64,000 nucleotides of DNA from a virus, in the IMG/VR virus record IMGVR_UViG_3300047409_000266, positions 32,529 to 96,528 of that record. One strand, 5' to 3'. A program made the translations under genes and the position numbers. Below, piece after piece: positions 3,944-63,954 of this stretch; position 1 is the stretch's first letter, and the number at the start of each line of letters is the position of its first letter. The notes below the pieces were generated by a model. The model saw only the letters and a program-made list of their open reading frames with translations. It ran no database searches and was not told the origin of the DNA.

Positions 3944-4280
3944 AAGGGACGCAAATGGCTGCCGCCGTAGCAATCAGGCATATTGCGCAAGGTATCTGCC
4001 GAGTAGTTAGCAGAGGTTGCGTCATGGACGAAAAGCCGAAGCGTCCTGTATGCACGGCGAAGAATTGTCGAATGGTTCGGATCGCGCACATGGCCGTTAA
4101 ATCGGCGCTGGAACAGACCAAGTAAGGGACCGCGATCCGTGAAGCAATTCGGAATATCAGGCGAATGTTTAGACCATGTCGCTGAAATGCGAGAGCGAGA
4201 GAGAGACAAATATCTCCGGTCGTACTCAACTTGGTTTCGGAGACTTTTGCACTGGCTAGGATTGGAGTGAAAGGGACGCC

Positions 4281-4514
4281 ATGACGCGCACAGAGGCAGA
4301 AGCCGAAATGGTTCAGGGGTTCATGGACGGCTATGACGTGGATTGTCCGGTGCCAAGTCTCAATCGCAGCTATAGTTATCGGCACGGGTTTTTGAACGGT
4401 CGCGATGACAAAGTTCTCAAGCGTCCGCGAGACACCGCAGAGCGATTACGCGAGATAGCCGAGGACTGTATCGCACTCGATTGCGGTGAAGTCGTTTTGG
4501 CGCAGATGGCATAG
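4281..4514 (+). CDS. hypothetical phage protein
   Basis: ORF track; SxNRSxSYRHGFxNGRDD pattern; junction-flanked. Confidence 0.6.
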   Translation: MTRTEAEAEMVQGFMDGYDVDCPVPSLNRSYSYRHGFLNGRDDKVLKRPRDTAERLREIAEDCIALDCGEVVLAQMA

Positions 4515-4530
4515 AGCCGAAAGGGACGCC

Positions 4531-4848
4531 GTGCTGATCCCCTGTGATATGGGCTCCGAATGTTACTGGCCAGCGTGCAATCTAGATTGCCGTGGGCGGA
4601 TCATGGAGGCCAAAACGCTTAGCGTGGCTGTGCCAATTGCCGATAAGGTAAACCGCTGCGAAACCTGTGGCGTCGATACCGACTTTATTCACGACCACAA
4701 GTCGGACAACTCCGGTTTAGATGACGGCCCTTACTTACCTGGGTGTAGGCCACGGAAGCGGCCAGTTCGCAGGGACGATCTTGGCGAGGTGCGCAAGCGG
4801 GCGTGGCAAACGCGGCGCACTAAATACGGCAGCAGGGGGCACAGATAG
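4531..4848 (+). CDS. hypothetical protein (RxRAWxTRRxKYG C-terminus)
   Basis: GTG after junction; in frame with ORF 4486..4848. Confidence 0.55.
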   Translation: MLIPCDMGSECYWPACNLDCRGRIMEAKTLSVAVPIADKVNRCETCGVDTDFIHDHKSDNSGLDDGPYLPGCRPRKRPVRRDDLGEVRKRAWQTRRTKYGSRGHR

Positions 4849-4850
4849 CA

Positions 4851-5021
4851 ATGAAAACACTTGGCCAGCTTTCCTATGAACGCGATCTTGAGTTGCGCCC
4901 GCTCTATCACGATGGCGAGCGACGTAAGCCATGGGAGAAACTTAGCGAGATTTGCAGGTGGAGTTGGAATCGACCGATACCTATTCCAGCGCGGGAGGAC
5001 GGCGATGGCGCGCGGGTTTGA
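4851..5021 (+). CDS. 56-aa hypothetical phage protein
   Basis: Manual translation MKTLGQLSYERDLELRPLYHDGERRKPWEKLSE... Confidence 0.5.
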   Translation: MKTLGQLSYERDLELRPLYHDGERRKPWEKLSEICRWSWNRPIPIPAREDGDGARV

Positions 5022-32351: not shown

Positions 32352-32629
32352 GGATTGGTGTCATGGGCGACGTCATCCCGCTTCCCGGCGTTGAGCGCCG
32401 CGATCTCACTGGGCCCGTGCTCCGCAGTGATGAAATCCTGCAACAGGCCATCGAGGAAGGTGTCGAGGATGTGGTCGTTGTTGGCCGCGCTCGAGACGGC
32501 AGCATATTTGTGTCAGGTGCAACAAATGATGCCGATCGCGTCGTCGGTATCCTGATGGGCGGAGTTCAGTGGATGTCGCAGAACCAGTTTCAGCAGGGCA
32601 TCTACGAGGAACCGAAGGAGCCAGCATGA
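32348..32629 (+). CDS. hypothetical protein
   Basis: ORF track. Confidence 0.55.
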   Translation: MRIGVMGDVIPLPGVERRDLTGPVLRSDEILQQAIEEGVEDVVVVGRARDGSIFVSGATNDADRVVGILMGGVQWMSQNQFQQGIYEEPKEPA

Positions 32630-58474: not shown

Positions 58475-59776
58475 ATGGCAGAACTTTCCAAAACTGAGCA
58501 GGATGCTGAGAGCAAGGCACGGCAGGAAGCCAAGATAGACTCAGCCACGGAGAAAACGGCGGCTGACGTACTCGACGATGGCGAGCGCGGTAGCGAGGCT
58601 ATCGATACGCGCCAGGAGGCAAAGACAGACAAGCCAGCGGCAGAGCAAAAGCCGTCACCGACAGCGAAAAGCGTAAAGGACAAGACGCGCGACGATATTG
58701 TCTCGCGTTTCAAGGCCGATCGGATTACCGAGAAAGAGGAAGCCGCGGATGACATTACGGAATTTGCCCGCAGCGGCATGCCGCCTGAATTTGATGAGAC
58801 AAACACGCCGGTCGTTGAGCAGGCCGAGACCGAGCAAGAAACAGCCGCCGAGCAAGTTGAAGCGTCCACCCAGCCTCAGAAGATCAAGGTCAAGGTTCGT
58901 GGCAAGGAAATGGAGCTAACGCAAGATGAATTGATCGCGAACGCCCAGAAGGCGCTTGCTGGCGAAAGCTACCTCGAGGAAGGCAAGACCAAGCTCAAAG
59001 AGATCGAGGACCATCTAGCCAAATTAAGGAATCCGGCCGCGCGCGTGGGCCAGGACGACATACACCCTGCCGTTCAAAATCAGACGCAAACTACCGAACA
59101 GACAGCCGACACAAAGGATCAACACCCCGATCCGATGGATAAGCTGATCGAAACTATACAGTTCGGCGATCCAGCGGAAGCCAAGACGCAGTTGCGAGAC
59201 ACCATTGCAGCTACGTCGAAGCAAGTTGTGACTACGGAGCTCGAAAACCAGCGCTTTCAAGACGAAGGTGCTCGGACAAACAAGGTGCTCCAAGACTTCA
59301 GAGACAAGCATGCCGATCTCGCTGCGGATTCGAAGGCGGTTGCCGTCATCGAAACCACAGTCCTCGAACTACAAAAGGAGGATTTGCGAGCAATTGGCTT
59401 CGATCCCGACAAGATCCAGACCCCTAGCGGCGTTGTAACCGCTGGCGACATCGCCACGGCACATCGCTACTATCGGTCCAAAGGAGCCCGCCTCAGAAGT
59501 CCTACCGAAATGCTGGAAACAGCACGGGACGAATATCTGAAGTGGAAGGGGATCGATAAGACTGATGCCACGGTCGAAACGACAGACAAAGCGAAACCGC
59601 GCGTTGAAGTAACAGTAGACCGCACCGCTCGTCGTACGGCCGTACCTCAACAGCCAAGCCGAACCGTATCACCCAAGGTCAATCAACAGCAGCCCGCGGC
59701 AGCGCGGGATCGCTCGTCGATCGTCCAACAGGAGATCGCGCGACGTAACTCCCCGCGTGGAAAAGTCGCCGTCTAA
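58475..59776 (+). CDS. capsid scaffolding protein
   Basis: Acidic E/K/A/T-rich, KIKVKVRGKEMELT motif, directly upstream of MCP. Confidence 0.75.
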   Translation: MAELSKTEQDAESKARQEAKIDSATEKTAADVLDDGERGSEAIDTRQEAKTDKPAAEQKPSPTAKSVKDKTRDDIVSRFKADRITEKEEAADDITEFARSGMPPEFDETNTPVVEQAETEQETAAEQVEASTQPQKIKVKVRGKEMELTQDELIANAQKALAGESYLEEGKTKLKEIEDHLAKLRNPAARVGQDDIHPAVQNQTQTTEQTADTKDQHPDPMDKLIETIQFGDPAEAKTQLRDTIAATSKQVVTTELENQRFQDEGARTNKVLQDFRDKHADLAADSKAVAVIETTVLELQKEDLRAIGFDPDKIQTPSGVVTAGDIATAHRYYRSKGARLRSPTEMLETARDEYLKWKGIDKTDATVETTDKAKPRVEVTVDRTARRTAVPQQPSRTVSPKVNQQQPAAARDRSSIVQQEIARRNSPRGKVAV

Positions 59777-59813
59777 CGAGAAGGAGAGGCTTAGTTCCGA
59801 AAGGAGTTCTGCA

Positions 59814-62800
59814 GTGGCAGGACAACTGTGGTCAATTCCTGCTGAAGGTGGGTACATGTACTCGGACGAATTGTCCGATGTGCTCCGCCAGCAGGTGCAG
59901 CCGCTGACAAAAATGCGTCAGCTCTGCGATGCCGAGGATGGGACAAAGAAAGGTCTCAACCGCGGTGATAAATATAACTGGGACGTCTACAGCAATGTTG
60001 GCACCCAAGGTCGACGATTGGATGAATCGGCACCAATCCCAGAAACGGGATTTACGATCATTCAACACCAGCTTACGGTTAGTGATAGCCGCACTCAGAT
60101 TTACGTTTGAGTGAAACACTGGGTTAATTCGGGGAAACTCTCTCTGAGACAATCCCGAGCCAAGCCGTCGACGTAGTGAGAAATCACCAGGGCGACGGAA
60201 GGTGTAACGACTAGGCGGTGAGGAAACAATAATCCGCCCACGAACACCCAGGACATTACTGCCAGTGGTCTAAAAACGCCTTTCGCTTCCGACGGAGGTA
60301 AATGGAAGCGTCTCTGTAAATCCAACTCAACACGTTAGTTTTCTTGCCGCCGGACAATCGCCACAGCTTATTTTCTTGATGGGCTTTGGTGAGCATCATG
60401 CCGGTATGAGAGAAGATCGCCGCGCGCAAGCCGTCGATCAACATTTCGGTCCCAGAGAAGCAGAACGACTTCGCTTTAACACTGCCATCACCATCGAGAA
60501 GCCCGCGCATGTAATGTCGTTCTAGGTGCTTTGGCACCTTGGAGTATTGCAGCGTGTGGCTCTTTCTAGGTGTGACGCCATGTTTGATGATGTCGCGTAC
60601 TAGCTTCTGGCTTCCGAAATAGATGAACTTGTAGGGGCCCCGATTGGGGTACTTCGGGTCTATCTCTCTCTGAAAAATGCGAGCGTTTGATCCCATCGCC
60701 GACCGGATATCCCGGAGGATATGGACGTCCCTCGCTTGGAGCATGAGAACAACAGAGCGGCCAGCAGACGGTATGGTTCCGTCGGCCGCAAGGAACCCTA
60801 GAATATAAGCCTTCTGTTCGGTATCGATCTTCTCGAAGAAGCTTTCATCGAGAGTGTATCGCCGTCGCACGCGGCTTCTATAAATCTCGGATTCGTGGCG
60901 ACGAGTTCTGATGGTCTGCTCGGTGCAATCGAATTTTGCAGCGAGTTCACTATCCGAATAGCGCTCTGTGAGTTGGAGCAAGGCATTCCCTGACGGGATA
61001 TCGTAACTGTACGGCCGCTCCTTCTGGATAAGGCCGTATTCCAGTCCCCAAAGCCGAATGCTTGAACGGTTGCAGCCAATCACGGCGGCAGCATCAGAGA
61101 TTGAGTGCGTTGCTAACAATGAACGGAGATCGTTCTTTGTTGGTCGTTTATACGGTTTTCCTGTCATTACTGAACCGTAAACCATTGTTGTATAATGTCA
61201 AGAGATAGTCTGAGCAGCCGCGCGAGCGGTTGATGCCGTGGATAAAGAGCTGCGGCGGTAACATCCTGTTATGAAGCTGGCAATTCGGTTTTCTAAAGGG
61301 AGCCGAAGTAAAATCGCGTGAAACGGGGAAACTCTCCACAAGCGGAGACAATCCCGTAGGAAGCCGCAGCGGGCATTTTGATGCTGCGGAACCTCTAGAG
61401 ACTAGGCTGTGAGTCCCAACAATAATCAGCCCACGAGCGCGCGACGCGAAAGCGAAAAGATAGTCCCATCAGCACGGTGACGTGTTGAAAGCCACGGATA
61501 AAGAGCCGCGGCGAAGAAGAAATGTCCCTACACCGGCAAGCTTGTTGCGTTGGCGAAGCATCAAGTCGCCGCGATCATCGACAAGACGCTAAAGGACGAC
61601 GCACGCAAGTACTTTGACATTGAAGCATTCCTTCAATTCAAAAATACAGCCTTGCGCGCCGCACCTTCTGGCGGAACCTCTGCTACCGCGATCACGCTCG
61701 ACACTGGTGGAACCTCTACCGTGACGAACAACCTCGCGCTTGGCACTGGTCACATCAAGGCCATCGTCGATGCGATGAAAGAAAGGAACATCCCACCGTT
61801 TACGGCGGATGACTACGTTGGTGTTTCTCATCCTTCGACATGGCGAAATCTCAAGAACAGTCTCGAAACAATACATCAGTACACAGAGACTGGTCTCGCT
61901 TGTGATGGGCGCCTCGCCGCGTGAGCGGTGAGTGATAATCTCGCTAATTGCTGGAACCCGCTTAGAGCCGAACGGCCACAGCGTAGCTCGTAAGGGCAAG
62001 CGCGAAGGGTGAAAATCGTTCGGATTGCGCAATCAGCAGCCGAGCCGCTAGATCAGCGGAAGGTTCAACGACCAGGGCGGAAGCCCGTAGGGGATAAGCA
62101 TCCCCGAAACGCGAGATGGCTCGAAAGAGTCAGTGATATGGTCTACTCTGCGATTCGAAAGACGCAGCAGGAGAAAGAGAAATGCCGAGAGGATTAGATC
62201 GGCCGACGTGCAGTATTGAAGGCTGCGACCGTCCACACTTTGGGCACGGCATGTGTAGTCTACATTATCAGCGTTGGCGATCTACAGGCATCACGACCCA
62301 TGAGATTGATCGGAAAGCAAAGTTATCCGTTCGAGAAATTATGGTCGAGATGTTGCTCGATGGCATTAGAGAGTTGGATGATGGGTGCTGGATTTGCACG
62401 ACTGCCTATCCCGGTAAGAAGGGATATCATAGACTGCAAGTCCGGCGCGGCAACGTGGTTCATCGCGAGATGGCGCACCGCGTTAGTTTCGAGCATTTCA
62501 AAGGGCATCTTGGCCCACGTATGCTCGTATGTCATTCATGCGACTATCCTCCGTGTTGTAATCCTGCACACCTGTTCCAAGGTACGCACGCTCACAACAC
62601 TCAGGATATGGTGAGAAAGCAGAGAGGTTTGGTTGGCGAACTAAATATGAATGCGTTGCTTACCGAAGCCAAAGTGCTTTCCATATATCAGGACGAAGAT
62701 TTTGGACTGACTAGAGTGGCAATTGCCAAAAAACACGGCGTCAATCCAGAAACTATTTCTCACGTCCTGAGCGGTCGCAACTGGAAACATCTCTTTCTGC

Positions 62801-63173
62801 GGCACAGGCACAGCGACCCTGTGTGAATTAGTGGCACATCTTCAACGGCGAAATCGGAAGATATGAGTCCTGTCGTTTTGTCGAGCAGACCTTCATCCCG
62901 AAGGGCGGCGCGGCGGATGCGACAGCAGCCGGAACATACGATCCATGGGGTGGCATTGCTGACCCATGGAACAACGGATTGTCGTCATGGGCTTTCATAC
63001 TTGGCGGTGATACGGTCACAGAAGCAATCTGCGTCCCAGAGGAAATTAGAGCTAAGATTCCAGGCGATTTCGGCCGCTCTCGCGGCATTGCTTGGTATTA
63101 TCTCGGAGGTTTTGGTCTGGTGCACACTGACAGCCTGAATGCTAGGGTTGTCATGTGGGACAGCGCAGCGTAA
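59814..63173 (+). CDS. major capsid protein (N4-gp56-like), spliced: join(59814..60079,61269..61289,61525..61900,62835..63173), 333 aa
   Basis: GTG start with SD AAGGAG; exons total 1002 nt and read ...QLTV|YEAGNSV|PYTGKL...TETGLA|HIFNGEIGRYESCRFVEQT...DFGRSRGIAWYYLGGF. Confidence 0.88.
60080..61268 (+). ncRNA. group I intron 1 in MCP gene (IA-like, ORF in P8)
   Basis: U-G splice pair CGGT|TAGTGATAGCCG; P7 GACTA(60209)/TAGTC(61206); P8 GACATTA/TAATGTC; terminal G 61268. Confidence 0.85.
60256..61185 (-). CDS. intron-encoded two-motif LAGLIDADG homing endonuclease with N-terminal HTH repeats, antisense to the intron
   Basis: YILGFLAADG and YMRGLLDGDG; start may be ATG 61167. Confidence 0.85.
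   Translation of the reverse strand: MVYGSVMTGKPYKRPTKNDLRSLLATHSISDAAAVIGCNRSSIRLWGLEYGLIQKERPYSYDIPSGNALLQLTERYSDSELAAKFDCTEQTIRTRRHESEIYRSRVRRRYTLDESFFEKIDTEQKAYILGFLAADGTIPSAGRSVVLMLQARDVHILRDIRSAMGSNARIFQREIDPKYPNRGPYKFIYFGSQKLVRDIIKHGVTPRKSHTLQYSKVPKHLERHYMRGLLDGDGSVKAKSFCFSGTEMLIDGLRAAIFSHTGMMLTKAHQENKLWRLSGGKKTNVLSWIYRDASIYLRRKRKAFLDHWQ
61290..61524 (+). ncRNA. group I intron 2 in MCP gene (235 nt, no ORF)
   Basis: P1 TTCGGT|...GCCGAA; IGS AGGGA pairs with 3' exon TCCCT (P10); P7 GACTA(61400)/TAGTC(61461); terminal G 61524. Confidence 0.9.
61901..62834 (+). ncRNA. group I intron 3 in MCP gene (IA2-like, ORF 3' of the core)
   Basis: P1 CGCT|TGTGATGGGCG; P3 ATCTCGC/GCGAGAT; P/Q AATTGCTGG/AATCAGCAG; P7 GACCA(62070)/TGGTC(62139); terminal G 62834. 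Confidence 0.85.
62182..62826 (+). CDS. intron-encoded HNH homing endonuclease (Zn-binding)
   Basis: CxxxGC...GMCxxHYQR N-terminus; AHRVSF...VCHSCDYPPCCNPAHLxxGTxxxNxxDM; C-terminal HTH; SD AGGAG. Confidence 0.88.
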   Translation: MPRGLDRPTCSIEGCDRPHFGHGMCSLHYQRWRSTGITTHEIDRKAKLSVREIMVEMLLDGIRELDDGCWICTTAYPGKKGYHRLQVRRGNVVHREMAHRVSFEHFKGHLGPRMLVCHSCDYPPCCNPAHLFQGTHAHNTQDMVRKQRGLVGELNMNALLTEAKVLSIYQDEDFGLTRVAIAKKHGVNPETISHVLSGRNWKHLFLRHRHSDPV

Positions 63174-63186
63174 GGAGAAAAACACA

Positions 63187-63954
63187 ATGGCTTACAACGC
63201 TCCTTACTTCGAAACCTATCAGTGGGCCGAAGATGCTACTTTCGGCAGCACTGCCATCACGCACAACATCATGGGGCCGAGAGGCCGCGTTGGTTTTGTC
63301 CGTGACATCAGTGTCGATGTGACGACCGCTCTGGTTGGCACAACGACAGTACCGGAAATCAGGGTTGGCTTTTCTTCGGGCGACTTCACCTATGGTCGCT
63401 ATCGTTTGGGAAGCACTATCAGTCTTGGCTATGCTGTTGGCATACACCGTGCCAGCATCGAAGCATGGTCTGGCAACCCACCGCGAACGCTAAACGATTT
63501 TGCGAGCCACGTCGTTCTTGACGGCGGCCCATTGACATCGCAAGGCATCGCGGGCGGCTCGTACGGCACAGTTGTGCCTGCAGGCCGCATTCCGACTGGA
63601 CCGCTCCAGATCACAAACGTGATCTTGGGCACGACAGCAAACTCCAACCGCGTTTTCGTCAATGGCCTTACGCCCGGTCCGGGAGGTATCTCGGTCGGTC
63701 AGAAGGTCTTGGTGGCTGGCGTTGCTGGTGTGAACTCGACTGAGAATGCGGTCCTGACAGTCGCGGCAATCGATACCACAAACTATCAGTGGGTCGAACT
63801 GACGACACAGACGTTCTCCGGTGCCTACACCGGCGGTGGCTGGTTGATGCCTCTTGTGGTCGTTACGAGCACGATTGGCGTCGGCGGCTCTCCTGCTGGC
63901 GGTGGTATCATCCGTGTCCATATCCAATGGATCGGAACTGATTCCGGCGGTTAA
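63187..63954 (+). CDS. putative capsid decoration/cement protein
   Basis: Directly downstream of MCP with SD AAGGAG; G/T/V-rich beta-type composition. Confidence 0.6.
   Translation: MAYNAPYFETYQWAEDATFGSTAITHNIMGPRGRVGFVRDISVDVTTALVGTTTVPEIRVGFSSGDFTYGRYRLGSTISLGYAVGIHRASIEAWSGNPPRTLNDFASHVVLDGGPLTSQGIAGGSYGTVVPAGRIPTGPLQITNVILGTTANSNRVFVNGLTPGPGGISVGQKVLVAGVAGVNSTENAVLTVAAIDTTNYQWVELTTQTFSGAYTGGGWLMPLVVVTSTIGVGGSPAGGGIIRVHIQWIGTDSGG

Follow-up and report, generated by a model that had tools for sequence, protein, structure and literature searches.

A phage major capsid gene probably split by three mobile group I introns, two of them bearing homing endonuclease genes

The stretch of DNA considered here, called the window, comprises 64,000 nucleotides (nt) and corresponds to positions 32,529 to 96,528 of the IMG/VR virus record IMGVR_UViG_3300047409_000266, an uncultured metagenomic phage genome of 96,528 nt that is rated 100% complete; positions below count from the first letter of the window. 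At 59814 to 63173, on the plus strand, lies the major capsid gene, and with a probability that we put at about 0.9 three mobile group I introns, all of the phage IA type, split this gene of the complete 96.5-kilobase (kb) phage. The original prediction, made from the letters alone, had seen a capsid gene cut into four exons by three group I introns, and this core reading is borne out by the agreement of the exon junctions, the RNA fold, the matches to the Rfam covariance model RF00028, the U and G at the splice sites, and the P7 helices.

Exon junctions and capsid identity

In the list of open reading frames (ORFs), the capsid frame appears only as fragments, as first noted in the original prediction. 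Excision of 60080-61268, 61290-61524, and 61901-62834 reproduces the single frame that had been proposed, 1002 nt encoding 333 amino acids (aa) with one terminal stop. A Shine-Dalgarno sequence, AAAGGAG, can be read on the plus strand at 59800..59806, 7 nt upstream of the GTG start at 59814, and the N-terminus of related proteins, MAGQLW, begins where the spliced protein begins. Exon 1 (59814..60079) encodes aa 1-88 and two bases of codon 89, while exon 2 (61269..61289) is a micro-exon of 21 nt that holds the YEAGNS codons together with split valine codons. Exon 3 (61525..61900) follows with aa 96-221, and exon 4 (62835..63173) supplies aa 222-333 and the stop; all four lie on the plus strand. 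Each of the first three exons ends in a U (T at 60079, 61289, and 61900 in the DNA) and each intron ends in a G (61268, 61524, and 62834), the bases that had been claimed for these positions. Shifting intron 1 or intron 2 by a single base would yield an identical mRNA but forfeit the terminal G, so that the boundaries given here are those that fit the group I rules.

The junctions are equally well defined at the protein level. Aligned with 12 intron-less relatives of 330 aa, to which it is 76-93% identical, the spliced protein shows no gap at any of the three junctions, the outcome expected under the original prediction; the alignment is interrupted once, by an insert of 3 aa in exon 4. All 90 full-length uninterrupted relatives are free of gaps within 8 columns of any junction. 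The junction peptides LTVYEAGNSVPYTGK and TGLAHIFNGEIGR rank among the best-conserved stretches of the capsid protein, the segment around aa 96 being at the 99th percentile of conservation and the one near aa 221 at the 81st, as measured over the full-length relatives. The exon 4 insert itself, AAG at aa 252-254, is situated in a loop and is absent from all 12 of the compared relatives. At the nucleotide level, a megablast search of the capsid locus against GenBank phages returned no match.

The identity of the product rests on several lines of comparison. Exon 3 alone, used as the query, retrieves 945 longer proteins, mostly of 330 aa and many of them carrying the JGI name “N4-gp56 family major capsid protein” or the label DUF4043, and exon 4 matches the major head protein family phrog_1357 (E 1.5e-4, profile positions 241-337 of 356). 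Against the PDB sequences, a profile built from close homologues found no match, and a profile of the diverse family matched capsid proteins of solved structure (9vye_A, E 1.1e-6). For P0002, a protein 93% identical to the spliced product, AlphaFold gave a model with a predicted local distance difference test (pLDDT) score of 82 that resembles the capsid proteins of Pan3, NF5, GP4, N4, and HK97 (Foldseek E 8e-13 to 1e-9). Judged from this model, the spliced product is clearly predicted to be an HK97-fold major capsid protein of the DUF4043/N4-gp56-like kind. The original prediction had placed it in the N4-gp56 family; the major capsid identity stands, but the link to N4 is a distant one. With TIGR04387, the N4-gp56 family model, P0002 scores 41.8 bits (E 8.1e-11), below the curated NCBIfam cut-off of 60, and by sequence the protein is no more than distantly related to N4 gp56.

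Three group I cores

All three inserts match RF00028 end to end on the plus strand. In a scan of 3.6 kb with E-value reporting, intron 3 scores 45.1 bits (E 1.7e-9), intron 2 37.8 bits (E 2.6e-7), and intron 1 31.6 bits (E 1.8e-5), and genome-wide intron 3 reaches E 1.1e-11. RF00028 and the two intron profiles described below match the complete genome of 96,528 nt nowhere but in the three capsid introns. A whole-window Rfam scan at an E-value threshold missed intron 3 (61901-62181), the best scorer of the 3.6-kb scan, because the speed filters vary with the length searched.

The P3-P9 core with its P3/P7 pseudoknot can be placed by coordinate, helix for helix, in every one of the three. Intron 1 (60080..61268, plus strand) is a class-A, IA-type intron of 1189 nt that ends in G. 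Its internal guide sequence (IGS), GCCG, is at 60088, followed by P3 at 60119/60247, P4 at 60129/60153, P7 with GACTA at 60209 and TAGTC at 61206, and P7.1 at 60214/60234; P8 (60252/61193) encloses an ORF, and P9 (61216/61226) and P9.1 (61235/61250) complete the fold. Intron 2 (61290..61524, plus strand), likewise class A and ending in G, is compact at 235 nt and contains no ORF. It features the P10 element GGGA at 61298, the IGS GCCGAA at 61302, P3 at 61314/61440, P4 at 61323/61352, P6a at 61364/61383, P7 at 61400/61461, P7.1 at 61405/61427, P8 at 61445, P9 at 61471/61481, and P9.1 at 61491/61506. With the ORF left out of intron 1, these two introns are 78% identical. Intron 3 (61901..62834, plus strand, 934 nt, ending in G) belongs to a second, IA2-like class B, and bears the IGS GGCG at 61908, P2 at 61915/61925, P3 at 61938/62111, P4 at 61948/62033, P7 with GACCA at 62070 and TGGTC at 62139, P7.1 at 62075, P7.2 at 62090, P8 at 62118, P9 at 62146/62163, and a terminal hairpin at 62803/62818. 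All three are assigned to the phage-typical IA subgroup by the hairpins between P7 and P3′, a covarying P7.1 in introns 1 and 2 and P7.1 together with P7.2 in intron 3.

Comparative evidence for these helices comes from two alignments, one of 22 class-A introns that includes intron 2 and one of 18 class-B introns that includes intron 3. On class A, RNAalifold recovered P3, P4, P5, P6, P6a, P7.1, P8, and P9. Once the P7 pseudoknot, which is invariant, and P9.1 were added, 92.5% of the cells were paired as opposed to 37-42% in slid controls, with compensatory change in 35 of 51 pairs; none of 500 shuffles reached the observed values. In class B, 95.7% of the cells are paired and 18 of 30 pairs show compensatory change. 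Here P7 itself provides a double compensatory change, being GACCA/UGGUC in intron 3 and GACUA/UAGUC in the other 17 introns. Intron 1, which was left out of the class-A profile, matches it (nhmmer) in two halves, 5′ at E 2.3e-30 and 3′ at E 1.5e-9, and the break between them falls precisely at the P8 loop. The recognizable P7 core that had been claimed for each intron thus has both its strands located and is backed by covariation, and the covariation tests together with the protein alignment exclude chance as the source of the pattern. Beyond this locus, the core motif shared by introns 1 and 2 is present in 91 IMG/VR contigs (L082-L172) and that of intron 3 in more than 116 (L173-L288); the two compact IA-type families are widespread in IMG/VR, and most of their members reside outside capsid homologues.

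How the gene might then be expressed follows the familiar group I scheme. The whole capsid gene would be transcribed as a single pre-mRNA, in which each intron would adopt its P3-P9 ribozyme core and form P1 by pairing its guide with the 4-6 bases at the end of the exon, leaving a U·G wobble at the splice site. The pairing is most extensive in intron 2, whose IGS GCCGAA forms 6 base pairs (bp) with exon UUCGGU, including the U·G wobble, and whose P10 element GGGA complements UCCC, the first four bases of exon 3; intron 3 can form a P10 of 4-5 bp with a bulge. An external guanosine would attack the 5′ splice site, and the freed exon 3′-OH would in turn attack behind the terminal G of the intron. 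Three such reactions, which we infer from the sequences, would produce the 1002-nt mRNA and from it the 333-aa capsid protein.

Translation of the unspliced message would be cut short in each intron. The capsid frame meets a stop 10 codons into intron 1 (60108-60110), 2 codons into intron 2, and 7 codons into intron 3 (61922-61924), always 5′ of P3, and such stops would keep ribosomes out of the ribozyme cores. Early in-frame stops keep ribosomes off the ribozyme in the T4 td intron as well. Other kinds of insert were also considered. Inteins are ruled out by the in-frame stops and by the antisense orientation of one ORF, group II introns by the lack of a reverse transcriptase and the presence of a group I core, and “spare exon” introns by frames that reach stops after 2-10 unrelated codons.

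Endonuclease genes and the distribution of introns

Two of the introns carry genes for homing endonucleases of different families, both with intact ORFs that score above the Pfam cut-offs. Filling the P8 loop of intron 1, on the minus strand at 60256..61185 and thus antisense to the capsid gene, is a gene for a LAGLIDADG protein of 309 aa with a double motif and N-terminal helix-turn-helix (HTH) domains (phrog_4645, E 7.6e-47; PF14528, 25.3 bits with a cut-off of 22.5). Distant relatives of this protein are found in intron-bearing Staphylococcus and Bacillus phages. Intron 3 bears, after P9 and in the sense orientation (62182..62826, plus strand), a gene for an HNH (HNH_3) protein of 214 aa that has its own GGAG ribosome-binding site (PF13392, 26.9 bits with a cut-off of 24.8; phrog_1872, E 4.3e-26; phrog_59, E 2.9e-25). 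Its final codons overlap the terminal hairpin, 8 nt 5′ of the 3′ splice site. The two enzymes presumably would cleave intron-less alleles of the capsid gene in co-infecting relatives, and repair of the cleaved allele would copy the intron into it.

When the 80 top-ranking capsid loci from IMG/VR were surveyed, nearly all proved uninterrupted, and the split relatives have introns at the same and at other sites. An ORF-less intron of 266 nt occupies the intron 1 site, aa 89, in contig L053, which has another at aa 309. In L048, a related contig of 86.7 kb, an intron of 960 nt (4055-5014) occupies the intron 2 site, aa 96, and L050 holds introns at aa 53, with a sense LAGLIDADG gene, and at aa 96, with a class-B core. 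Five further contigs (L145, L117, L292, L302, and L305) have introns near aa 96 and/or about aa 309, those of L145 and L292 at aa 96. The capsid family therefore offers at least five insertion sites (including aa 53, 89, 96, 221, and about 309), and aa 89 and aa 96 are each both occupied and empty among related contigs. Since relatives carry or lack introns at the same and other sites, the introns are best regarded as mobile selfish elements; of the marks of a mobile intron, intact endonuclease ORFs are present in introns 1 and 3, and site polymorphism is seen at aa 89 and aa 96 but not at aa 221. The core of the L048 intron is 91.7% identical to intron 2, which by this comparison appears to descend, as an ORF-less form, from an intron at that site that bore an endonuclease gene. 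The L048 intron has a 238-aa antisense ORF just after its guide sequence, near the 5′ end, and antisense endonuclease ORFs are seemingly common in the introns of this capsid family.

The consequences for annotation are visible in a cultured virus. Exon 3 matched 28 Vibrio phage records, of which 1.232.O was the one examined. Its capsid gene contains an unannotated, ORF-less class-B group I intron of 313 nt (L001:3581-3893; MG592596.1, 7541-7853) that follows ...GVAW, with a T at the exon end and a G at the intron end. The annotated “major capsid protein” of 290 aa is truncated, and splicing would yield 317 aa ending in YYLGGFG...KWTSAS. The converse is also encountered. In the public protein clusters P0164, P0167, P0170, P0246, P0248, P0260, and P0193, the N-termini (for example MNCW..L...GIGQSAAK) are translated class-B intron core (AATTGCTGG..., CAATCAGCAGCCAAGCC) whose reading continues into the capsid exons, entering them at about aa 55 and 180-183, and a second fused group, P0137, P0143, P0152, P0153, P0182, and P0220, is joined upstream of aa 94-96. 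A Pfam search with the N-terminal extensions of ten such fused homologues found no match, and these extensions proved to be translated intron RNA. The fused capsid “proteins” are gene-calling artefacts, which hint that the family may have further insertion sites.

Directly 5′ of the capsid gene, at the position of a scaffolding protein, the window encodes an acidic protein of 433 aa (58475-59776). Neither this protein nor the downstream one of 255 aa (63187-63954) matched NCBIfam, the sole library tried on the upstream protein.

Competing explanations and known systems

Several observations weigh against three active, mobile introns. All three RF00028 scores fall under the curated gathering score of 50 bits, which is why a default Rfam scan is blank; the covariance-model search proposed in the original prediction did give three significant matches, though sub-gathering ones. 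P1 is only 4 bp in introns 1 and 3 (CGGU/GCCG and CGCU/GGCG), and the P10 of intron 1 is poor. A scan for sigma-70 promoters of the antisense LAGLIDADG gene found no sigma-70-like promoter. Finally, junction-pattern searches of viral and metagenome contigs and the capsid relatives revealed no second intron at aa 221.

Could the introns serve the phage rather than themselves? Splicing might adaptively gate or time the production of capsid protein, or a second capsid isoform might arise by occasional skipping of exon 2. The most abundantly needed late mRNA would after all depend on three ribozymes, and the sibling introns 1 and 2 flank a 21-nt exon, the length of which keeps an exon 1-exon 3 joining in frame. 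Exon skipping has, moreover, been reported for Twort orf142, to judge from the title under which PMC6669764 cites Landthaler and Shub (1999). Against such a role, capsid relatives that are 93% identical carry no introns at all, so that the introns are dispensable, and the way in which they come and go, some with endonuclease genes and some without, is that of selfish elements. The seven residues of exon 2 also lie within the best-conserved stretch of the protein, around aa 96, so that a skipped product would probably be defective. We therefore consider an adaptive timer or a second isoform unlikely, and the timing control on head assembly suggested by the original prediction finds no support, as the presence and absence of introns in close relatives, along with the endonuclease genes, point to selfish elements. 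The narrower proposal that the sibling introns splice in a coupled or alternative manner around the 21-nt exon, by joining exon 1 to exon 3 or by ordered removal, is decidedly unlikely; if true, ribozyme kinetics would set the amount or form of the capsid protein, a regulatory use of multiple introns in a phage late gene.

Alternatively, the gene could be dead, a defective phage or a decaying copy having accumulated endonuclease-gene insertions that stay unspliced. Splicing is here deduced rather than observed and introns 1 and 3 have short P1 helices, both of which such decay would accommodate. Yet the four exons are in frame and 76-93% identical to intact genes with no stop or frameshift, and the core helices and invariant bases of all three ribozymes are intact, which together make a dead gene very unlikely. 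The record is rated complete, the scans made of the genome turned up no candidate for a second capsid gene, and the seven codons of exon 2 could not function as a separate peptide. Misassembly, conceivable for an uncultured metagenomic record, is scarcely credible and is excluded by insert ends at codon-level junctions that restore the frame, by homologous introns at identical sites in independent contigs from other samples, and by the intron of the cultured Vibrio phage.

Three mobile group I introns in the capsid gene thus remain the preferred reading, and the locus provides a fully mapped, clean case in which the phage gene that is expressed most heavily would hold three ribozymes and two different homing endonucleases inside 1 kb. 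It identifies the capsid family as a recurrent intron target, with its five or more insertion sites. The standard Rfam threshold and gene callers overlook these introns, and database capsid proteins are therefore truncated, including that of a cultured Vibrio phage, while intron RNA is translated into spurious database “proteins.” The conceptual gain is small, as introns in capsid genes, endonuclease ORFs in antisense orientation, and phage genes with three introns have all been published before.

The T4-type IA2 introns of td, nrdB, and nrdD/sunY contain P7.1/P7.2 between P7 and P3′ and early in-frame stops, with endonuclease ORFs looped from peripheral helices or located after P9, as in sunY. 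Intron 3 resembles them in these structural features, namely its P7.1 and P7.2 and its ORF after P9, but the T4 host genes are nucleotide-metabolism genes. The orf142 of Staphylococcus phage Twort is a small gene with no known role whose introns are not known to contain ORFs. According to the title cited above (Landthaler & Shub, 1999, in PMC6669764), it contains three group I introns and undergoes exon skipping, and the three-intron Twort gene mentioned in the original prediction corresponds to orf142; both genes share three group I introns within one phage gene, but here the host gene is a capsid gene and two of the introns bear endonuclease genes. Three introns also divide the tape-measure gene of Vibrio phage ICP1 into four exons (Barth et al., 2023, PMC10448857), a different host gene from the capsid gene described here, and neither an antisense LAGLIDADG gene nor a 21-nt exon was reported for ICP1. 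In jumbo gut phages, numerous group I introns are spliced (PMC12880540). Faustovirus and other giant viruses possess many-exon major capsid genes that are partly split by group I introns (PMC6247863), but these are giant viruses of eukaryotes, an unrelated lineage whose capsid protein has a double jelly roll.

Among phages, a capsid intron is cited for lactococcal phage Tuc2009 (in PMC3706429), and that of mycobacteriophage LittleE has had its splicing proven by reverse transcription PCR (RT-PCR) and N-terminal sequencing (Pope et al., 2013, PMC3706429). The LittleE gene has one intron where the present gene has three, in another capsid family and host phylum and with splicing predicted from sequence comparison. 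In both phages, the major capsid gene is interrupted by a group I-type intron that follows an exon U, ends in a terminal G, carries an antisense LAGLIDADG or LAGLIDADG-like ORF, and is missing from close relatives.

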